Shown here: positions 15,256 through 60,133 of the stretch, in pieces
Layout: every line of letters begins with the position of its first letter
Position numbering within the stretch: the first letter of the stretch is position 1
NCBI GenBank assembly: GCA_000092065.1
Contig: CP000589.1
Length of the DNA stretch: 64,000 nucleotides
Direction: 5' to 3' (one strand)
DNA from: Ostreococcus lucimarinus
Taxonomy: Eukaryota
Program-made: the position numbers and the translations under genes
Notes under the pieces: model-generated
The model's input: the letters and a program-made list of their open reading frames with translations, nothing else
Told to the model about the DNA's origin: nothing
Database searches by the model: none

Positions 15256-15861
15256 TTAGTTGTTCGTATATTGCACGTATGTATCCATTGACATGAATTC
15301 ATGTCCATTCTCGGCAGCCATCTCTTGCGTCTCGTCCCAAGGACACCCGCGCTCACGCGCGTACTTCAAACATTCCAACTCTCCATCCATGGCGGCAAGT
15401 GCGCACGTCCACTCGTTCCAGGGACATCCATTCTCGTGCGCGTACTTCAAACACTCCAATTGTCCGCTCCGGGCGGCATTCATGCACGTCCTCTCGTCCC
15501 AAGGACAGCCGTGCTCGTGCGCGTACTTCAAACATTCCAAATGTCCATTCCGGGTGGCGTAATAGCACGTCCTCCAGTCCCAAGGACACTCGCGCTCGTG
15601 CGCGTACTTCAAACACTTCAAATGCCCATTCATGGCGGCATTCGCAGACGTCCATTCGTTCCACGGAAAGTCGAGTCGCCGCGCCTCCTTCAGCTGCTCG
15701 AGATAGCCAAGTTCCGCGAGTTTTGAGCAAACTAAGCCGTCTGCATCGCGCTGCGGTCCGCGAGATACATTCTCGAGGCAAGTCTCGAGGCAATCGTGAG
15801 TCTGACTGGCCCGGCGCTTGATCAATTCGCGCAAACGCGCGTATGGGTCCTTCTTAGCCAT
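15256..15861 (-). CDS. Ankyrin-like 'GCPWDE' repeat protein (tandem ~33-aa repeats).
   Basis: Five tandem repeats of the form NGHLECLKYAHEHGCPWDERTCxxAA. The underlying DNA is a ~99-bp tandem repeat across 15300-15700. ATG at 15861. Confidence 0.6.
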   Translation of the reverse strand: MAKKDPYARLRELIKRRASQTHDCLETCLENVSRGPQRDADGLVCSKLAELGYLEQLKEARRLDFPWNEWTSANAAMNGHLKCLKYAHERECPWDWRTCYYATRNGHLECLKYAHEHGCPWDERTCMNAARSGQLECLKYAHENGCPWNEWTCALAAMDGELECLKYARERGCPWDETQEMAAENGHEFMSMDTYVQYTNN

Positions 15862-21811: not shown

Positions 21812-22162
21812 GTGGACATGGTGCTCGTGCCGGCGACGACGGGGGACTTTGGAATCTTACCGGGACACGTGCCGACGGTTTCGCAGCTGCGACCGGGGGT
21901 GGTGAGCGTGCATTTGAACGATAAAGACGTGAAGAAATACTTCGTCAGCAGTGGATTCGCGTTCGTGCACGCGGATTCGACGGCGGATATTTGCGCCATC
22001 GAGGCGGTGCCGGTGGAGCAACTCGACGGGGACGCGGTGAGGAAAGGGTTGGCCGAGCATCAGGCGAAATTTACGAACGCGAAGGATGATTTCGAAAAGG
22101 CGAACGCGCAAATCGGTATCGATGTGTGCAACGCCATGGTGGCTGCGCTCGACGCCAAGTAG
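21812..22162 (+). CDS. ATP5D: Mitochondrial F1-ATP synthase delta subunit, exon 2.
   Basis: VDMVLVPATTGDFGILPGHVPTVSQLRPGVVSVHLNDKDVKKYFVSSGFAFVHADSTADICAIEAVPVEQLD matches ATP5D (VDVPTLTGAFGILAAHVPTLQVLRPGLVVVH...KYFVSSGSIAVNADSS). Acceptor CGCGCAG| at 21809..21811. Intron 21571..21811 (241 nt). The reading frame shifts from frame 1 to frame 2. Confidence 0.8.
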   Translation: MDMVLVPATTGDFGILPGHVPTVSQLRPGVVSVHLNDKDVKKYFVSSGFAFVHADSTADICAIEAVPVEQLDGDAVRKGLAEHQAKFTNAKDDFEKANAQIGIDVCNAMVAALDAK

Positions 22163-22212
22163 AGAGAAGTGTAAAGGAATATCGTTAAAAATGTACGTTG
22201 AACGGATTCGGC

Positions 22213-24717
22213 TCAGCCGGCGGCGCTCGCGATGACGATGGAACGGTCGGCACCGTTTACACCGCTCTTTTTCTTCCGCAACAACGCCAACTCGTCGTGC
22301 AACATCGTTAGTTCGTGCGTGTACGCGTCCTTGTGCGCGATGAACATCTTTAGCTCGCTTCGCAAGCCTTTGATTTGACGCGACTTTTCCTTGATGTGCG
22401 CGTGCGTCTCTCGTAGCTCCTCAAACGCTCGAGGTCCGGGTTGACGGGACAACACCACGCGAAGTTCGGCGAGTACTTTTGTTTTCTCGCTAATCAGAAT
22501 GTCTTTCGTCGTCACTTCTTCCGTTTTCGTGATCAGTTTGCGCTGCAACATTTGAACTTTCTGAATCAACTCGTACATAGTCGGATCGCTGCCTTTGAGC
22601 TGTCGCCAACGATGGACATTCATCGGATTCTCGAGTTCCTCGCTGAGTGCCTTAACTTTTGTGCGTTCGTGGAGAAGTTCGCGACCAAGCGTTTGGACTT
22701 CGTGCTTCAACGCATCGATGCTTGCCGCCGCTTCTCGCAGGGACGTGAGTTCTTGCGCGTGCGACGCCAATCTGAGCTTCAACGTTTTAATCTCGCGAAC
22801 GCGCTCACGATACTCGGCTTGGCCTTGATTCAAAATTTTCTGCTGAACCTTGACTTTCTCGTAAAGTAGCGCGCATTCTTGATTCCGCTGCACAAGTTGT
22901 GCGTTGAGAACGTCACGATCACGCTTGATGACATCGAGCTGCTTGCGATGCGCCTCGCGACTTTCTCGCAACGACGCCACAGATGAGCGTAGCGTCTTCG
23001 ATTCATCACTCGTATGCTTCAGAGACTCTTGCGTCTCGCGAAGCGTCGAGTTTAGCTTATCATTCTGTCGTCGTAGAGCATCGTGTTCTTTGTCCAACTT
23101 GCGATGCTCGAAACGCTCGCCCGCGATGACGGCGTCCTTCATTCTAAGTTCCTCGTGCAAACCTTCCATCGCCACAGTCTTGGCCTTGAAATCGCGTTTG
23201 ATCTCCGCAATTTGTGACTGGGCCTCGACGAGAGACTTTGATTGTTGATTGCGTTCCGCGCACACGACGTCGTACGCGTGCTCGGCTTGCTTAATTTTGC
23301 TTTCTGCATCTTGTAATTCTTGCCGTAAATCAACGATTTGAGACTGTCGATCATGAACGTCATCCTCCAACTTTTCCTGACGACGCACCGCCGCCGCGAT
23401 GTCCGCCAATAACTTTGCACGTTCTTGATCGAGACTTTTTATCTGCATCTCTTGCTTAACTTGTTCGCGTTTGTAACTCTTGATTTCGTTTTCGAGTGTT
23501 TGACGCTGCGCCTCATGAATACGCAGCAAATCTTGTTGCCGACTTGTGGCGTTCTGCGCCTGCGTAGTCGTCTTCAGAAGGACATCGCGCTCGCGCATAA
23601 GATCTTCTTTTCGCCTTTGCTCGTTATCTAAGTCTCTTTTTTGTTGCTCGAGACGTTGTTTGAGTAATTGAATCTCGCGCTTGAGCGCATTCTTTGCGTC
23701 GTCTGCGTTCAATTTCGTTTGCTCCGCCGCGCGGAGTTTAGACTCTAGTTGAGTGGACTTTTTTAAAGTACTCTCCTTTTCACGCTCGAGCGTTTTGATT
23801 TCATCGTTCAACGCTCGAATTTCGTGCATCTTGGCCGTGTTTGCATCCTCAGCACTCTTATTACTCGCGCGAGCTTCGTCAAGTTCGCGATGAAGCTTGT
23901 CAGATTTGCTCGCTAACACGTTCAACTCTTTCTGAGCCGCCTCTGTCCGTCGCTCTTGCAAACAAGTATCTTTTTCTAGCTTGATAATCATTTCGTCAGC
24001 CTTTGTTATCCTCGCTTTATACTCTCTGATCTCAATGTCGCGTTCTTCAGAGCGTTCCTGTACCTCGCGCATCTCGCGCTCGAGACGTTCCTTCGTGCGC
24101 TTTTGCCGCTCCACCTCCATCGCACTCGCGTGCGACAGATCACGTGCATTTTGTAATTCTACGTCTAAATCTAATTTCGTCGATTCAGCCTTTCTCGTTC
24201 GCTCCGATAGCTTATCGATATCCTCCCTGAGCCTGATGGTTTGCTCGAGTAATTCATCTCGTTCGGCGGTGAGACTCTCCTTGGCGCTCAGTAACGATTC
24301 AATCTCGCGCGAGTTCGCCCTTCGCGCACTCGCGCGCTCCATAAACAACCCATCACTGGTCGTCGTTTCGCAACCCCCTAGCTTGTCTTCATCTCGTGTC
24401 AGCCGTTCAATTTCCATCTTCAATTCGCTCGCCTCGCGCTTACTCGCCAACTCGCTCTCGTGCGATTCATCCACCATCGCCCACGCCTTCTCTAACTCTT
24501 CTTTGAGCGCATCGATGGTTGATTGATCTTCCCGCGACAAATCCAGCGTCATCATCATTTTCCTCGCCTGTCCGCGACACTCCTCCGCGAGCGTCGCGCA
24601 CTTTGCCGTCAACGCTCGCTCGCGCTCCGCGGCGTCCGCGAGCGCGGCCCTCACCTTATCGCACTCTTCTCGCACCTTGACCGCGCGCGCGTCGTCGCGC
24701 GGTAATTTTGATATCGC
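22213..24717 (-). CDS. Long coiled-coil protein, CCDC39/CCDC40-like (axonemal 96-nm ruler family), exon 2.
   Basis: About 830 aa of continuous coiled coil with a conserved C-terminal block (NPMNVHRWRQLKGSDPTMYELIQKVQMLQRKLITKTEEVTTKD...LSRQPGP). The track start at 24675 is a GTG. The frame stays open upstream to a CGCGCGCACAG| acceptor at 24718..24720. Confidence 0.6.
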   Translation of the reverse strand, partial: AISKLPRDDARAVKVREECDKVRAALADAAERERALTAKCATLAEECRGQARKMMMTLDLSREDQSTIDALKEELEKAWAMVDESHESELASKREASELKMEIERLTRDEDKLGGCETTTSDGLFMERASARRANSREIESLLSAKESLTAERDELLEQTIRLREDIDKLSERTRKAESTKLDLDVELQNARDLSHASAMEVERQKRTKERLEREMREVQERSEERDIEIREYKARITKADEMIIKLEKDTCLQERRTEAAQKELNVLASKSDKLHRELDEARASNKSAEDANTAKMHEIRALNDEIKTLEREKESTLKKSTQLESKLRAAEQTKLNADDAKNALKREIQLLKQRLEQQKRDLDNEQRRKEDLMRERDVLLKTTTQAQNATSRQQDLLRIHEAQRQTLENEIKSYKREQVKQEMQIKSLDQERAKLLADIAAAVRRQEKLEDDVHDRQSQIVDLRQELQDAESKIKQAEHAYDVVCAERNQQSKSLVEAQSQIAEIKRDFKAKTVAMEGLHEELRMKDAVIAGERFEHRKLDKEHDALRRQNDKLNSTLRETQESLKHTSDESKTLRSSVASLRESREAHRKQLDVIKRDRDVLNAQLVQRNQECALLYEKVKVQQKILNQGQAEYRERVREIKTLKLRLASHAQELTSLREAAASIDALKHEVQTLGRELLHERTKVKALSEELENPMNVHRWRQLKGSDPTMYELIQKVQMLQRKLITKTEEVTTKDILISEKTKVLAELRVVLSRQPGPRAFEELRETHAHIKEKSRQIKGLRSELKMFIAHKDAYTHELTMLHDELALLRKKKSGVNGADRSIVIASAAG

Positions 24718-33790: not shown

Positions 33791-36700
33791 GTGAGGATCA
33801 TGGGGTTCATGGATAAGATGAAAGAGATGAAGACTAAGGCGAGCGTTAAGGCGGTGGGCATGCGGGATCGGGCGAAGGAGATGATGAATTCACCGAGTGG
33901 ACAGACGGCGCCGCGGTTTTCGACGACGAGTCGCAACGGCGGCGAAGAGTCGGCGACGACGACTCCACCGCCATCGCCGTATCGATACGAGTCGAATGTC
34001 GGGTTATCTATGTTAAACGTTATAGAATCGCCGGCGCCGGCGTCTCGCGCGCGTGATGTGCTTGTGGAGCGATCGAATGCGGCGGCGGCGACTCCGGAGC
34101 GACCCTCGCCGCGGCAACGACAAGAGTCGAGTGGAGTTTCTCTCGTGGATGGCATCGAGTGCGAATATTTTGATGAGCCATCCACAAGTGCGCCTTCGTT
34201 TGATCCAGTCTTAGTGTCTTTGAACCGCCTCGGCGCGGACTTCACTGTGGAGGACTTGAGCAAAGAGGAAGAGCGTCTGTCCGAGCTCGTCGAGCGCGTG
34301 TCGACGGAGTTGAATAGAGAGATTATGGCACATGGGGAAGACTTTGAGAAAGGGATAGAAAATATTGCAGAGATTTACAACGCACTTCAGTCGTCAGGGG
34401 TGTTACTGAGCAACTCTCGTCGTTTGCTCCAGCGCGTGGAGACCGACGTGAAGAGTGCGCTTCGAGTGCAAGGCTCGCATACGACGAAGGGTTCAATCAT
34501 GGGCGTGTTGCAGATTCTAGAAAATATTAGGTTTTGCCAAACGTGCGAAACTAAGATACGCGCGCGTCTGGATGTTTCTGAGTACGCGGATGCCATGTCG
34601 CTGTATTCCAAGGCGTGGGAAATTTTAGAAGACATGCACGCGTTGACGTGTACGTTAACGCTTCGAGAAGATTTCGTCGCGTTGCGATGGGAGCTCGTCA
34701 CCTGCGTTGATAACGTCTTGATTGATTTGTGTGGCACATTTGACGCTAAGAAGTTTGCAAACCTTTACGACACGTACCCAAAGCTTGGTCCAGAGGTGAA
34801 GCACTTGGCTGATAAGATTCAAGACGCGTTTCTCAAGGCGGTGGAGATGCAAACCGAAGGCATGTTGCGACTGCATGCCATGCTTTCGCACAATCAGGAC
34901 GAGGCTGACACCAAGCGCAAGAGTAGGATGGGTTACAAGCAACTGTGTTCGCAATTGTCTTCGATGCAGTTCGTACCGTGCCTACGCAAGACACTCGAGT
35001 CGTTACATGAAATTTTCCTTTCGTCGTATAGAATGACGGCGTGGTGCGAGACGGCGATGCGCGAGGTGATTGATAGCTCGGATGCAGAGGCGATCAATAA
35101 CTGCAGTGCATTGATTGCGGCGTTAGAAATTAACCGAAAACCAGTTGTTGAGATGGCGAGCGTGCGTCTGGCAGCCTTACTGCAAGCATCAGCCGCACCC
35201 AGTAACGCGGCGTTTCGCGAGGTTTTCGATCTGTGCCGCGTCTTCATAACATGCGCGGAGGCATTTTGTGGCGAAGAGTCTCGAGTTTTGCGCGCGCAGC
35301 TGGAGAGGATCGGTGATAGATACTTTGAATCGCTGCATAGCGCTAGAATGGACGCATCGAAGACGATGTTAGAGACAGAGCGATGGGTGCCAGTCTCCAC
35401 AGATGCCGTGAAGCGCGTGCAAGACGATTTGAAAAATGCCATGCAGCGCGGACGAGCGGCGAATGGGCTGGGCAAAACTTTAGGCGAGACGGTGATAACG
35501 ACTTTTACCTCGGAACAAGTCCTGAATTCTGAGTCGTTCATGAAGTTCATCGACCAGCCGAATCCATTCGTTTCAGAGTCTGGGAATTCCTCGGCGGAGG
35601 AAAATCACTCGCCGCGAGACATTCTCGCACAAAACGTCGTCGCCGCACATGAGACGACGACCACCACCAACACCACGGACGACGTCGACGATGGGTTTGA
35701 TGAAGAGATCAGCAATCAGAATGGCGATAAAACCGGTCTTGATCGCGTGGGCGTGAAGATTACGGCGTCTTCGTTGTACATTCTTCAGGGCATCGTCGAG
35801 TACACGGCGCTGATGCAAGTAATGCGGCCGAGCGTGCCGGTGATTTTCAACGGTATCTGTCAACTCTTCGAGCTCGCACTAGTGAAAACTTTTAACGCTT
35901 TCGGGCGAACGGAAGCTTTGCTTCCCGAATCGCACGACATGACGCCGCGGCTGCGAGGTACGTTGTCTAGACTCGGGAACTCGGGTGGCGCCATGGCGAT
36001 TCGACCTACGATTCGGGGACAAGGGGACGTAGACATCTTGTCCAGCGGTAATTTGTACGGTTTGAAGGAGCGCGGCATCGCGCTCGAGTCGCTCTCGCGC
36101 GTCGCCGATGAGTTCAAGCGCATCAAGGCGCGTGTGAAACGCTCGCTCCCGCTCAAAGACGCCGCGCTGGCGGATCGCTTTTACTCGCACACCGTCGCTG
36201 CGGTGGACGATTTGCGCGAGCACGTGTACAAGAACGTTGCTTCATTATTGCTCAACATTGAATTTTGCGCAGAAGCGATCGGAGACGGCGATCCAAACTT
36301 TGCGTTGGTGAACTCTACGTTCGTGGGCAAGTACAACATTCGCGAGACGCCGTCGAGGCACAACAAGTGGGTGGACGACGTCCAGGCCGAACTCTTACAG
36401 TTCACCACCAAACTCGCCTGCGCCGACGTCGCACCTGAAGCTCTGGATGTTCTGTGGCAGCACGCCGCGAGTGTGATCCAAGACTCTCTCGTCGATGGTT
36501 TCAGCAAGGTGAAAAAATGCACCGACGCCGGCAGAGCGCTCATGGCGCTCGACGTCGAAACCCTGCGCGGCGAATTCGCGAAACTCGCCCCGTCCCAGTC
36601 CCTTGCCTTCGACTGGCGCTACGTCAGCACCTACATCAACGCCTTCTACGTCCCAGAAAAAGACGTCGAGAAATGGATGCAAATCCATCCCGAGTTTTCC

Positions 36701-54168: not shown

Positions 54169-55944
54169 TTACATTTGGTCGAGATAGGCGCCGTAACCGA
54201 GCTCTTCGAGCTTGCTCGCCTTGTTCAACACGACGTTCTCCATGTCGTCTTGGTACGCTAACATTTTAGAGCACACGTCGGGCTCGAACGCGGCGACGAT
54301 GCGAGCGGCGATGAGACCGGCGTTGGCGCTGTTGCCGATGGCCACCGTCGCCACGGGAACGCCTTTGGGCATTTGAACGATGGAGAGCAAGGAATCCATG
54401 CCGTCGAGATACTTGAGCGGGACTGGGACGCCGATAACGGGAAGAGGGGTCATGGCGGCGACCATGCCGGGTAAGTGCGCGGCGCCGCCGGCGCCGGCGA
54501 TGATGGCGCGCAAGCCGCGCGTGTGCGCGCTTCTCGCGTACTCGTTCATACGCTCGGGCGTTCTGTGCGCCGAAATGACGGTGACTTCGCAACCGATGCC
54601 GAAAGATTCGAGGACCTCCGCAGCGGCGCTCATCGTGGGCAAGTCACTGTCGGAACCCATGATGATGCCGACTTGAGCCGCCTTCTTCGGCGGCGTCTTG
54701 TCCCCGCTCGCGGCGCGCAAAAGCGTGTCCAGACGCTCCGTCGCCACCGCCGCGCTCGGGCCGACGACGGTGAGGTGACCCATCTTGCGCGCGAGCTTCA
54801 TGTCAGGCTTTTCGTACCAGTGAATGCTCGCACCGGGAGTCGCTAGCGCGGCGCCCATGAGACGGTGCGCCCGGCCCATGGCCTCGTCGCCGTCGCCGTC
54901 TCCCAAAATATTCTTCATCACCGCCCCGCCAACCTTGAGCGAGGTGTCACCCAAGGGCCAACCCAAAATGGCGCGCAAGTGATTTTCGTACTGCGAGCAC
55001 GCGCAGCCTTCGATGGTGTAGTGACCGCTGTTGTGCGGTCTCGGCGCGCACTCGTTGAGCAAAATCGAGCCATCCTTGAGGAGGAAGAGCTCGACGCCAA
55101 AGATCCCCGCACCCGTGAAAGACCCGATCGCTCGCTTCGCCGCCGCTTGCACCGCTTCGGCAACTTTATTCGGAATCGGCGCCGGCGTCGTCGTCGTGTC
55201 GCAAATATTGTTTTCGTGAACGGTTTCGACGACGGGGTACGCCCGCGTCTCCCCATTCTTGGCGCGCACCACCATCACCGCCAATTCCTTCTCAAACGGC
55301 ACCCACTTCTCGCAATACAACCCTTGTTCAAACCCACCCAACTTCGCCACCGCATCGGCCAAATCCGCGGCGGTCTTCGCCACCGCGTTCCCGCGCCCGT
55401 CGTACGCCAAACGCTTGGACTTTAACATGAGCGGAAACCCAAACTCGCTCGCCGCGCTCTGCAACGCGGCTTCATTCGGGCAATCCGCGTACGGCCCGAG
55501 CGGGACCCCGGCGTTCGTGAAGTGTACCTTCTGCGCATACTTATCCTGAATCGTCGCCAACGTCTCCGGCGTCGGCTGCACGTCCACGCCCGCCGCGCTC
55601 AGCTCTCGCAGCGCCTCCACGTCGATGTGTTCAATCTCCACCGTCACCACATCGCACGTCTCCGCGAACGCCTTCACCGCCGCCTTATCCCTAAAACTCC
55701 CCACCACCTGCGTCGCCGCGATCGACGCCGGCGCGCGCTCCGTCGGATCCAGCGCTTTCAACCGCACCCCCATCGGCGCCCCCGCGATTGCGAGCATGCG
55801 TCCGAGCTGTCCGCCGCCCAATATCCCCACCCGACAGTCCCGTCCGTACCCCTCGAATCCCGGTTCATCGCTATCGCGTCCGCGCGCGTTCGCGCTTTCG
55901 TCAGTCCATCGCTCGATCGCTCGCGTCGTCCCGCGTTCGCGCAT
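54169..55944 (-). CDS. ADE2: Phosphoribosylaminoimidazole carboxylase, bifunctional PurK-PurE fusion (ADE2-type; N5-CAIR synthetase plus mutase).
   Basis: N-terminal ATP-grasp ([14 protein letters not shown]...; [18 protein letters not shown]). C-terminal PurE ([42 protein letters not shown]...[29 protein letters not shown]). ATG at 55944. Confidence 0.9.
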
Positions 55945-55966
55945 TCATTCATTCATTCATTCGCTC
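55942..55966. repeat. (CATT)5-6 microsatellite overlapping the ADE2 start codon / 5' UTR.
   Basis: gcattcattcattcattcattcgctcactcattcgcc. Confidence 0.5.
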
Positions 55967-56185
55967 ACTCATTCGCCCGGTTCAAACCGACGCACCTCAC
56001 TCGAAACTTGGCCTCCCCGCTCGCGCGCGCGCGCGTCCGGCGCGTTCGCCCGCGCGCGTTCGCCCGCGCGCATCGTCGCGTCGCGCGCGGCGCGCTCGCG
56101 TCGGTCGTCGCGCGCGCCGCGGCGCCCGTCATCGCCGTCGTCGTCGTCGATGTGACGACCGCGCGGCGGGCGGCGCGATCGCCCT

Positions 56186-56335
56186 CGCGTTCGCGTATTC
56201 GACCGGTCCTGACTCGTGAAGAGTCTCACACTACGACGCGCGCGCGAACGATCGCGATCGACCCTCGCGTTCGCGCATTCGACCGGTCCTGACTCGTGAA
56301 GAGTCTCACACTACGACGCGCGCGCGAACGATCGG
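56186..56335. repeat. Tandem duplication (2 copies, ~80-bp period, 1 mismatch) of a unit containing a GACTC-GTGAA-GAGTC hairpin, in the divergent ADE2 / ACT-kinase intergenic region.
   Basis: ccctcgcgttcgcg(t/c)attcgaccggtcctgactcgtgaagagtctcacactacgacgcgcgcgcgaacgatcg occurs twice, 80 bp apart. Confidence 0.6.
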
Positions 56336-56516
56336 CGACCGGGCGACCGACCGTCGCGAAAGGCCACGGGGCGCGGCGCCAACCGAAGCGTCGCCAACCG
56401 ACGCGTCGCGCGACGCCGACGCGCGCGACACCGCGCGACGCCCGCGCGAGCGCTCGAACGCGCGCGCGTATTTCGCGCGACCGGGCGCGCGGGCGCGCGG
56501 GCGCGGCGCGGGCGCG

Positions 56517-58376
56517 ATGGCGACGGCGCGCGGCGACGACGACGCGCGCGCGGCGACGACGCGACGCGAGGACGACGACGACGACGACGGGACGCGCGCG
56601 AGGACGCGCGACGCGCGGGACGCGGCGATGCGCGAGGAACTGGCGAAACGATTTCCCACGTGCGATTGGCGGGAGGCGCGGGCGATGGACGACGCGTGCC
56701 TGGTGCTCGTGCGCGCGGCGGTCGCGGCGGAGCGACACGGGGCGAGGGCGCTCTCGTGCGGGGCGCGGAGAGTCGCGGGCGAGGACGAGGACGACGCGTC
56801 GCAGAGAATGGCGCGGGGGGGATCGAACTCGTCGAGCGCGTCGGCGGGGACGTCGTTTTCGCGCGAGGCGTACGAGCTGGAACAGCTGACGGCGGCGGTG
56901 CGCGGCGCGGGTCTGAAGACGCCGGAGGAGACGGAGTATAAATTGGTGTTTTGCGGCGCGGACGTCGGTGGGATGCTAACGAGGACGATGCAGGTGGTAG
57001 ATAGGATCGGGTTGGAGGTGAAGGATGCGCAGGCGCACAAGAGCGTGGACGGAATGGCGTTGAATTTTTTCACCGTCGTCGGGTACGAGGGCGAGGACGA
57101 ACGCGCGCTCGAGGAAGCGGTGGAGGCTGCGCTTGTGAACGAGGAAAGCGAGGAGAAGAAGCCGCCGGTACCTTTGATCATCAACGCGGCACCGCCGAAG
57201 TCGGGAGTGAAGCGCCGGAGAGACGCACGGGCGCGAGGTGGTGAAGCTTTTTCCCCGAGCACGTCTGCGGAGCATCACGGTAAATCGCAACGGGCGGCTG
57301 CGAGCTTTGGCGGACGCGCTTCTAGTCGGCGTTCGCATTCGCGGTCTGGCTCAGAACTGTCGATGAATGACTCGTTCAACAATACAGCATCGGCGACGGA
57401 TACGCCGGGGAGTGAAGAAGCTACAGAGGAACCCATGTCGGAGGACAACAGCGACGGCGCGTTGAGCGTAGGAAGCGACATCGATTCGAAAAAGCTTCAA
57501 ATCGGACGCAAAATCGGTGAAGGGACGTTCGGAACGCTGTATCACGGCATTTATCCCAGCAGAACGAGAGAAGGACGAGTCGTTCACATCGAAGTCGCGC
57601 TAAAATATGTGACGCTCAAGCGGGACGATGTCAAATCGGCGCGGCTTGACTTTTTCCAAGAAGTCAAGATGCTTCGAACTCTCAAGCACGCAAACCTTGT
57701 CGGGTACGTTGGCTCGGTGGTCGAGGGATCGGAGCTATGCTTGGTGACAGAATTCATGGCAAAGGGTCCCTTACTAGAGTACTTGCGCGAAAATGGTCCG
57801 ATGCGAAAGGTGGAAGCGATACGAGTCGCCGTCGGCATCACGCGAGGCATGACGTACTTGCACGAAGTGGGCGTGATACATCGAGACTTGAGGGCTGCGA
57901 ACGTCTTACTTTCTGGATCTTTTGACGCAAAAATTTCCGATTTTGGTCTTGCACGTCGCGTACCTCGAAACCGATCGAGGATGACCGCGGAAACAGGCAC
58001 GTATCGATGGATGGCTCCGGAGGTCATCACGCACGGCGAGTACGACGTCAAGGCAGATGTGTTTTCTTTCGCCATTACGCTTTGGGAAATCGTCACCGGA
58101 GGCGCAAACCCGTACGGGGAGTTGAATCCTCTTCAAGCCGCAGTGGCGGTCGTTCAGAGAGGAATCCGCCCGCCGATACCGCATAAGTGCGATCCCCTGT
58201 TCGCAGAATTGATGCAGAATTGTTGGAAAACCGTGCCGCAGTCGCGGCCTCGTTTTAGAGATTTGCAGCCTTTACTCGAAGCGTGTGATTCTCCGGAAGA
58301 AGTCATCGAAACCTTGGCGAAACCTCCGAGCAAGTCTTTTTTCTCCAAGTTCCGCTTCGGAAGAAAGCAACAATAA
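56517..58376 (+). CDS. ACT-domain-containing TKL-family Ser/Thr/Tyr protein kinase (plant STY-type).
   Basis: ACT-like region YKLVFCGADVGGMLTRTMQVVDRIGLEVKDAQAHKSVDGMALNFFTVVGYEG. Kinase core IGEGTFGTLYHG...HIEVALKYV...HANLVGYVG...HRDLRAANVLL...DFGLAR...GTYRWMAPEV...FSFAITLWEI. The very acidic/R-rich N-terminal ~60 aa may not be coding. Confidence 0.8.
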   Translation: MATARGDDDARAATTRREDDDDDDGTRARTRDARDAAMREELAKRFPTCDWREARAMDDACLVLVRAAVAAERHGARALSCGARRVAGEDEDDASQRMARGGSNSSSASAGTSFSREAYELEQLTAAVRGAGLKTPEETEYKLVFCGADVGGMLTRTMQVVDRIGLEVKDAQAHKSVDGMALNFFTVVGYEGEDERALEEAVEAALVNEESEEKKPPVPLIINAAPPKSGVKRRRDARARGGEAFSPSTSAEHHGKSQRAAASFGGRASSRRSHSRSGSELSMNDSFNNTASATDTPGSEEATEEPMSEDNSDGALSVGSDIDSKKLQIGRKIGEGTFGTLYHGIYPSRTREGRVVHIEVALKYVTLKRDDVKSARLDFFQEVKMLRTLKHANLVGYVGSVVEGSELCLVTEFMAKGPLLEYLRENGPMRKVEAIRVAVGITRGMTYLHEVGVIHRDLRAANVLLSGSFDAKISDFGLARRVPRNRSRMTAETGTYRWMAPEVITHGEYDVKADVFSFAITLWEIVTGGANPYGELNPLQAAVAVVQRGIRPPIPHKCDPLFAELMQNCWKTVPQSRPRFRDLQPLLEACDSPEEVIETLAKPPSKSFFSKFRFGRKQQ

Positions 58377-58608
58377 AATAGCAAAAATACCGTATTTACG
58401 CAGAAGAGCGGCGCTCGCGAGCGCTTGCGCGCAAAATCTGAGCACGATGGACTATTCAACATCATCGAGTGCCAGTGTACCATCACCTCCCTAATAATGT
58501 TTATCTATTAGTTTGAGTTGAATAAAAACAGATGTACTGTATCACCCAAGAACACCAGCGTCGTTGCCTTCATTACGATGCGCGCGCATTACATACGAAT
58601 TAAAACTA

Positions 58609-59753
58609 CTACTTCTTAGTCGAAGGGAAAAGCGTCGTCAACGACGGTCGCGTCGGATTCACTTTGACGACTTGGTCGCCGACGACTTCGACGTTCTTGT
58701 ACGTGTAACCGACAAAGTTGGAATCTTTGCCCGCATCCGTTTCCCCAAGTTCACTCTTCTTTCGCATGCTCTCGTCCTCTTCGAAATCTTCAAAGTTACG
58801 AGTGTCCAATTGATGCGAAACGACGGGACTATGGGGTGGCTTCCTCGTGTAGAGAGTGTCCCAGTCGATGCCGCTAAAAAATTTGTGCGATTTGATCTCT
58901 TCCACGCCTCCGCTCGTTCCTAAACGCTGATCGACGTCGCATAACAGACGTTCGATCAAGTCGCGCGCTTCGGGAGAGATCGTCGCGTCGTCTGGAATTC
59001 TCAAGTGGTGTCTCCAGTGCACGATTTTACGGCACGTCGTCATCGGCTCGTCGCTGTAAAACGGCGCGTAACCCATGAGCATTTCAAACATGATAGCACC
59101 GACGCTCCACCAATCGCACTCCAAGCCGTATCCTTTCTTCAGGAGAACTTCTGGGGCGATGTAGTCCGGCGTACCAACTGTGCTGAACGCCAACCGACGT
59201 CGATTCTTCTGCCAGTTCGCGAGCTCTTCTGCGCGCTTTTGATCCGTCTCGATCGTGTTTGGCAAATTGCCCTCGCCGTCTCGACTCATCGCCGCTTCGT
59301 TCTCCAAGATTTCCGGGAGAACCGCCTGCTGATACGCCGGATCGATGGGTTTGCACAATCCGAAGTCGCTCAACTTCATGTGACCATCCTTGTCGAGCAA
59401 CAAGTTGTCCGGTTTGATGTCTCTGTGAATAAAGTTGTGTCGATGAATCGTCTCCAGCGCCGCCACCGTCTGCGCCAAGTAAAACCGCGTCTCTTCCTCC
59501 GTGAGCGTATCGCGTCGAATCAACAGAGTCATCACGTCTCCACCCGGTAAATATTCCATCACGAGGTACAAGAATTGATCGTCTTGAAACGAATAATACA
59601 GCGTCACCACCGCGCGCGAGTTCACCTCGGCGAGCAAGTTTCGCTCCGCCTTGACGTGATCGACTTGCCCGCGCCGAACCATTTCCGACTTTTTCAGCTT
59701 CTTCATCGCGAAAATCTCCCCCGTGCTCTTCTGTCGCACCAACCGCACCTCCC
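58609..59753 (-). CDS. NDR/LATS-family AGC Ser/Thr kinase, exon 2 (kinase domain and AGC C-terminal tail).
   Basis: (G)[24 protein letters not shown]...[26 protein letters not shown]...(NDR insert)...[10 protein letters not shown]...[16 protein letters not shown]...FVGYTYKN hydrophobic motif. The track start at 59781 is a GTG; acceptor CGAACAG| at 59754..59755. Confidence 0.85.
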
Positions 59754-59862
59754 CTGTTCGCGCGCGCGAAACGAATCCCACCCGTCGTCAGTCCCGCGTC
59801 CTCCCGGAATATTCCCGCGCGCGTCGTCGTCCGCGTCGCGTCGCGTCGCGTCGTTCACGCAC

Positions 59863-59940
59863 CGAAAGCCCCTCGCCCGATCAACTTCAGCGGTTCAAAA
59901 TCCTCGACGCACATCCTTTTCCCCGTCCCCTGTTGCGCCT

Positions 59941-59984
<44 letters not shown>

Positions 59985-60133
59985 TCGCCCGCGCTCGCCT
60001 CGGTCCTCGCGCGCGCGTCCCCCGTCGTCATCCCTCCCTCTCGCTCGCTCGCCGCCCGCTGCGCCTTGCTCGCTCGCTGCGTCTTGCTCGACATCTTCGC
60101 CACCGCGCGCGAGAACCACGACTCCTTCCCCAT
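59863..60133 (-). CDS. NDR/LATS kinase, exon 1 (N-terminal regulatory region with a poly-Thr14 tract, and the start of the kinase domain).
   Basis: ATG at 60133: MGKESWFSRAVAKMSSKTQRASKAQRAASE...TTTTTTTTTTTTTT...KRMCVEDFEPLKLIGRGAFG. Donor TTC G|GTGCGTGA at 59862. Intron 59862..59754 (109 nt). The splice restores LIGRGAFGEVRLV. Cross-checked against track ORF 59855..60133. Confidence 0.75.
59941..59982. repeat. (ACG)14 / (CGT)14 trinucleotide repeat encoding poly-Thr in NDR kinase exon 1.
   Basis: gtcgtcgtcgtcgtcgtcgtcgtcgtcgtcgtcgtcgtcgtc on the plus strand. Confidence 0.7.

Follow-up and report, generated by a model that had tools for sequence, protein, structure and literature searches.

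The duplicated sequence between the divergent ADE2 and protein kinase genes of Ostreococcus lucimarinus is, in our judgment, probably a young, species-specific and non-coding minisatellite (VNTR) that originated by slippage or unequal exchange and is likely to be neutral. It lies at 56174–56334 of the window, by which we mean the whole 64-kb stretch of DNA that was analyzed, and the number of its 80-nt units differs among wild members of the same species. The features on which the description relies are as follows (TRF marks a tandem-repeat call).

54169–55944, minus strand: ADE2 (PurK-PurE fusion, AIR carboxylase), 591 aa; Pfam preATP-grasp, ATP-grasp, PurK_C and AIRC
55942–55974: (CATT)n microsatellite adjoining the ADE2 start codon (TRF)
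55945–56516: divergent spacer, CpG-rich, 572 bp from the ADE2 ATG to the kinase ATG; holds the array
56174–56252: repeat copy 1, 79 nt; without the A after CGCGATCG and with T at 56196
56211–56225: palindrome GACTC-GTGAA-GAGTC of copy 1, with 5-bp arms and a 5-nt spacer; one TGACTC inside
56253–56332: repeat copy 2, 80 nt; equal to the consensus unit of the wild population
56291–56305: palindrome GACTC-GTGAA-GAGTC of copy 2, identical to that of copy 1
56333–56334: CG dinucleotide after the last copy, equal to the first 2 nt of the unit; the sole junction microhomology
56335–56352 (18 nt): hypervariable low-complexity segment, (GGCGACCG)-like, immediately right of the array; three population haplotypes
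56517–58376, plus strand: Ser/Thr/Tyr protein kinase, 619 aa; Pfam PK_Tyr_Ser-Thr

The repeat itself is plain in the sequence. TRF returns an array at 56174–56334 with a period of 80, 2.0 copies, 97% matches and a score of 306, in agreement with the near-perfect tandem duplication of about 80 bp described in the first-pass annotation, and a repeat finder delimits two 73-nt cores (56182–56254 and 56262–56334) that are 99% identical. A 37-nt core, searched with up to 3 mismatches, occurs exactly twice in the 64 kb, where dinucleotide shuffles predict 0.00 occurrences; a repeat of this kind is thus far outside what chance would produce. The copies are arranged strictly head to tail and sit between the start codons of the two divergent genes, where the first-pass annotation had placed them. 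The array is non-coding, since its period of 80 is not divisible by 3 and the length differences between alleles are of entire units. The two copies in the window differ at one base, T at 56196 in copy 1 and C at 56276 in copy 2, and copy 2 has one more A, at 56261; the “single mismatch” given for the duplication in the first-pass annotation is therefore correct within 56186–56335, but the full unit has a 1-nt indel besides. The T at 56196 is private, being seen in the window only, while the 1-nt deletion of copy 1 is common to the window and to two metagenome contigs (L007 and L016; L033 matches by array length only). The inverted repeat GACTC-GTGAA-GAGTC is indeed present in both copies. The spacer region also holds an exact 15-mer, CGCGTTCGCGCATTC, which occurs once in the ADE2 start codon region (55932–55946) and once in the 5' part of the unit (56266–56280; repeat family D2), and this pair could be the trace of an older, now degenerate duplication or merely low-complexity sequence.

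That the window belongs to O. lucimarinus, a picoalga very abundant in the sea, is confirmed by two more of its encoded proteins, which are exactly the same as XP_001419483.1 and XP_001419494.1, predicted proteins of strain CCE9901. The genome of O. lucimarinus is compact, at about 13 Mb, and has scarce intergenic DNA. Within the 572-bp spacer the array stands 230–390 bp from the ADE2 ATG and 180–340 bp from the kinase ATG. Pfam finds the complete PurK-PurE set of domains in the minus-strand gene, which upholds its identification as ADE2, and its protein is 90% identical to that of O. tauri and 92% and 89% identical to those of two sister clusters. The public assembly collection lists the identical ADE2 protein in 427 blocks, and all places among the matches listed are marine metagenome assemblies. 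The opposite gene, previously labeled an “ACT-kinase”, is a kinase by its PK_Tyr_Ser-Thr domain, but the ACT part of the label is unconfirmed because Pfam gives no ACT match at E ≤ 0.01 in 56517–58376. On some contigs prokaryote-style gene callers push the kinase reading frame upstream into the repeat, which yields models of 694 and 712 aa. The (CATT)n tract that had been noticed at the ADE2 start is located by TRF at 55942–55974, and it is polymorphic in length, with one additional CATT unit in L006. On the ADE2 strand it reads (AATG)n, with the result that several ATGs lie out of frame shortly before the annotated start; if transcription covers the leader, these would constitute upstream ORFs.

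Two other compositional features of the window were observed. A second array with a period of about 81 bp (15331–15667; 4.2 copies, 75% matches) is coding and unrelated to the 80-nt array; its product, a 27-aa repeat (NGHLECLKYAHE.GCPW..), belongs to a minus-strand ORF of 201 aa (15256–15861). The GC content is 0.51–0.54 in three 2-kb windows (22001–24000, 34001–36000 and 58001–60000) against a background of about 0.62.

To describe the array at the level of the population, we compared about 30 marine-metagenome contigs of O. lucimarinus at the ADE2/kinase locus, which were gathered by identity to ADE2, by identity to the kinase, from near-identical variants of either, and by scanning metagenomes for a 25-mer of the unit core. 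Array length was measured between fixed exact anchors on either side. The 2-kb flanks on each side of the array are 99.0–100% identical between the contigs and the window, which places the contigs in the same species as the window. The alleles obtained in this way are listed by copy number.

1 copy: L004 and L036 (diverged right flank); L037 (common right flank with a private SNP)
2 copies: the window, L002, L003/L027, L006, L007, L008/L029, L010, L014, L016, L031, L033
2 copies and a truncated third (at least 3): L026
A partial copy and 2 copies: L034
5 contiguous copies: L001
N-gaps inside the array: L005, L009, L025, L028
N-gap in place of the array: L030, L032

It is clear that the number of copies varies in nature. 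Most contigs carry 2 copies, and the one-copy alleles are found on three contigs with two flank backgrounds. In the commonest allele (L002 and L008) the two copies are 100% identical, and these 2-copy alleles share one flank type with the one-copy allele L037. Variation is also present within the units, with a CGAC[C/G]GG site that reads G, G, C, G, C along the five units of L001 and C, then G in L031, a GACGTG variant in L009, L014 and L034, a CGCGTGCG variant in L006 and L035, and an insertion within the palindrome loop in L010. Unit variants that segregate in differing orders fit unequal exchange and not the mis-assembly of a single 2-copy allele. The segment at 56335–56352 is itself hypervariable, with a common form, a form with 17 extra nt (L003/L027) and a form with about 8 differences in 34 nt (L004/L036), although the flanking genes differ by less than 1%. 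Most of the alleles come from short-read metagenome assemblies, which are able to collapse or mis-size tandem arrays, so single copy counts (especially the one copy of L037) are less certain than the variation itself. Four contigs (L001, L004, L010 and L036) are taken to be long-read assemblies only from their “contig_N” names and from indel-type gene breaks. Seven metagenome scaffolds have N-gaps within the array or in its stead, and several of the metagenome pieces that were fetched begin or end inside it. In L034 (positions 1–135 of contig Ga0255763_1002619) an AT-rich head of about 110 nt is followed by (GAGT)6 and fused into the unit at GAGTCTCAC. This head has no match in the window or in the other loci, seven more places like it are reported, and it could be an assembly chimera or a genuine structural variant or insertion in the array.

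The unit is restricted to one locus and one species. All 7 of the JGI metagenome contigs that contain the unit-core 25-mer map to the ADE2/kinase locus (this is exact matching, which diverged copies would escape), the same 25-mer has zero matches in IMG/VR, and the unit core is not found elsewhere in the 64-kb window at up to 3 mismatches. The divergent order of ADE2 and the kinase is kept in the P0031 clade (L018–L021) and in O. tauri (L022), while the L023 contig of the P0033 clade stops inside the spacer, short of the kinase side. Comparison with blastn-short shows that the 80-nt unit is absent from the three sister-lineage spacers (L018/L020/L021, L022 and L023), in which only GCGCGC-type words of at most 14 nt match. 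These spacers are unalignable with that of the window, while the ADE2 coding DNA is about 83% identical to it. Each of them has short repeats of its own: (CACCGAACCGAACGG)x2.5 and (CAAAT)x4.6 in L018 (3387–3604), a perfect (GACTCGAG)x8.6 in L023 (261–329) that shares the word GACTC with the palindrome of the window, and several GC-rich tandem units in O. tauri L022 (3597–3744). That the repeats differ from one sister spacer to the next points to a general liability to slippage in this spacer, which is rich in CpG and low in complexity. It was in the O. lucimarinus lineage that the 80-nt array came into being, and the view that the duplication is young, already put forward in the first-pass annotation, is borne out by the identical copies of the commonest allele, the segregating single-copy alleles and the absence of the unit from sister species.

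We found no report in the literature of an Ostreococcus minisatellite at the ADE2/kinase locus. One article (PMC3887541) carried out a tandem-repeat survey of its own that covered units of 1–50 bp only; it cites earlier surveys of tandem repeats as well, one of which (Mayer et al., 2010) took in O. lucimarinus.

The anatomy of the junction can be read from the perfect 2-copy alleles. Identity at period 80 extends over 82 nt (80 + 2) in L002 and L008, which sets the junction microhomology at 2 nt (CG). The array is flanked as ...GGGCGG / unit / CGGCGACC..., and no direct repeat beyond the 2-nt overlap abuts these flanks. CGATCG words near both ends of the unit were considered as microhomology arms; as they are spaced 74 nt apart and not 80, they are not the arms that recombined.

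With this in mind, the array would have begun with the head-to-tail duplication of an 80-nt stretch of the ADE2/kinase spacer. Because the junction microhomology is only 2 nt, this initial duplication most likely came about through slippage of replication or a switch of template with hardly any microhomology. Two identical copies may then have let slippage or unequal exchange, between sister chromatids or homologs, expand and contract the array, which would have resulted in the 1-, 2-, at least 3- and 5-copy alleles that segregate in wild populations. The palindrome and the GC-rich inverted segments inside the unit would be passengers of the duplication. Slippage or unequal exchange is thus the most likely mechanism, and the array is most likely selectively neutral, altering at most the spacing and the number of motifs in the shared promoter; we infer neutrality from the lack of conservation. 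The first-pass annotation had offered simple slippage duplication as its fallback, to be accepted on three observations, and two of them are made here, namely that the unit is unique to this locus (in the window, the JGI metagenomes and IMG/VR) and that there is no flanking TSD. A slippage-type duplication is what is left standing, but it is more than a simple one, as its copy number now varies in the wild.

A regulatory role is the alternative that retains the most plausibility, and even so we consider it unlikely. Under this reading each unit would add binding sites, so that copy number would tune the transcription of ADE2, of the kinase or of both, and the candidate sites are the dyad GACTC-N5-GAGTC (which includes a GCN4/Bas1-type TGACTC) and two inverted GTTCGCGC words (E2F-like). 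Several aspects of the locus are in its favor. The array lies in the shared divergent spacer, where transcription could plausibly respond to a change of copy number, alleles of several lengths occur side by side in nature, dyad symmetry is typical of sites for dimeric transcription factors, and TGACTC is the Bas1/Gcn4 box of yeast ADE genes.

The counts and the comparison with sister species are less favorable. The dyad, like the unit, is absent from all three sister spacers, and the O. tauri spacer is without any GACTC or GAGTC (0, compared with 3 in L018 and 12 in L023, the latter mostly in an unrelated 8-mer microsatellite). In the window TGACTC is under-represented, with 15 observed against 25.7 expected, and GTTCGCGC is at the level of chance, with 33 against 31 expected. 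The spacer with one copy would have 2 GACTC/GAGTC words per ~490 bp, only about 2 times the 1.8 per kb of the background, and four or more are present in 3.3% of 600-bp windows. The full dyad is found in the two copies only and so counts as a single independent occurrence where 0.09 per window are expected, and the 5-bp hairpin is by itself unremarkable. Neither the unit nor its motifs are conserved in the orthologous spacers or enriched, which tells against the cis-regulatory module suggested in the first-pass annotation.

A bolder version of the regulatory reading would make the array a natural expression dial of the ADE2/kinase promoter, with selection keeping different alleles in different ocean regimes, and it would see in sister lineage L023 the independent amplification of another repeat containing GACTC. 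L023 has indeed amplified a different GACTC-containing 8-mer in its ADE2/kinase spacer, a point that could be counted for a regulatory role in general. However, the coincidence is not significant, since the chance that some repeat unit of a sister spacer contains GACTC or GAGTC is about 0.25 by estimate, and we do not treat it as evidence. Judged from sequence comparison, the expression dial appears quite improbable.

The preferred reading of a neutral minisatellite also has to be set against that of a mobile element, in which the unit would be a MITE-like footprint or a tandem insertion whose ends carry short inverted repeats (CGATCG...CGATCG and CGTTCGCG...CGCGAACG). The unit of about 80 nt is within the size range of MITEs and its predicted fold pairs the two ends, but the terminal pairings consist of GC-rich words that are common across the spacer (repeat families D2 and D4), and the fold of the unit is no better than that of shuffled sequence. 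There is no second locus in the JGI metagenomes, in IMG/VR or in the rest of the window, though the species is abundantly sampled. The head-to-tail order is strict, the copies overlap by 2 nt at their junction, no direct repeat (TSD) flanks them, and no empty-site allele was seen among the contigs. These locus, junction and fold data effectively refute the MITE reading, and with no dispersed copies, no clean TSD and no convincing TIRs the miniature mobile element of the first-pass annotation finds no support.

The possibility that the unit is a duplicated gene for a small structured RNA, or a hairpin-forming element of a 5' UTR, fares equally poorly. A hairpin can be drawn and the location could lie in a 5' leader, but a scan of 55000–57500 against Rfam at E ≤ 1 gives zero matches and ARAGORN finds no tRNA or tmRNA gene. 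The folding energy of each copy on both strands is inside the shuffled distribution (z of −0.5 to −1.5, not distinguishable from shuffled sequence). With the unit absent from sister species there is no covariation to show, and the L010 allele carries its insertion in the very loop of the hairpin. We therefore regard the small-RNA locus that had been suggested, given its lack of an Rfam or tRNA match, of a fold better than shuffled and of conservation, as highly improbable. Finally, tandem repeats are sometimes mis-assembled and scaffolds are gapped at this locus, but an assembly artefact of the reference sequence has a negligible probability, as the 2-copy structure was assembled independently in more than 10 samples with different assemblers and the copies of the window are told apart by a substitution and by an indel that recurs in other contigs.

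Among known systems, the minisatellites (VNTRs) are the closest to the array. Its 80-nt unit is within their 10–100 bp, its copies are head to tail and non-coding, individuals vary in how many copies they carry (1, 2, at least 3 and 5), its unit variants are interspersed in varying orders and the adjacent flank is hypervariable; the array thus has the unit size, the intraspecific difference in copy number and the non-coding character by which a VNTR is recognized. It is unlike them in being very short (mostly 2 copies), very young and in a compact algal genome.

A second comparison is offered by microhomology-mediated tandem duplication (MTD), for which a trajectory from 1x to 2x to a tandem repeat (TR) has been proposed as an origin of tandem repeats, for segments of 10–500 bp (PMC8639346; bioRxiv 10.64898/2026.02.28.708716). 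The coexistence in one species of 1x, 2x and multi-copy alleles of an 80-nt segment is similar, and the length is within that range. However, the working definition of MTD requires the single-copy segment to be bordered by microhomology arms of 4 bp or more (bioRxiv 10.64898/2026.02.28.708716), and as the array has a junction microhomology of 2 nt (CG), below that length, we do not file it as MTD.

The resemblance to other systems is more distant. The array shares with MITEs a size of about 80 nt and some internal inverted symmetry, but it is at a single locus, in tandem copies only, with no TSD and no significant TIR. The repeats of yeast promoters are for the most part short and AT-rich, and their effect comes from the exclusion of nucleosomes. 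Like them, the array is polymorphic in length and located in a spacer that contains promoters; unlike them, it has a unit of 80 nt that is GC-rich. Vinces and colleagues reportedly described, in Science in 2009, how unstable tandem repeats in yeast promoters tune expression.

The array adds one further case of a well-known kind, the VNTR, and its biological importance is small. It does account for the assembly breaks and gaps at this locus, and it can serve as a ready-made length marker for O. lucimarinus genotypes in cultures and in metagenomes. If its copy number altered the expression of ADE2 or of the kinase, the array would be a promoter VNTR of a sort rarely documented in a marine picoeukaryote. 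With single-copy, duplicated and expanded alleles segregating in one species, the locus captures cleanly, in a natural setting, how a tandem repeat comes into being.
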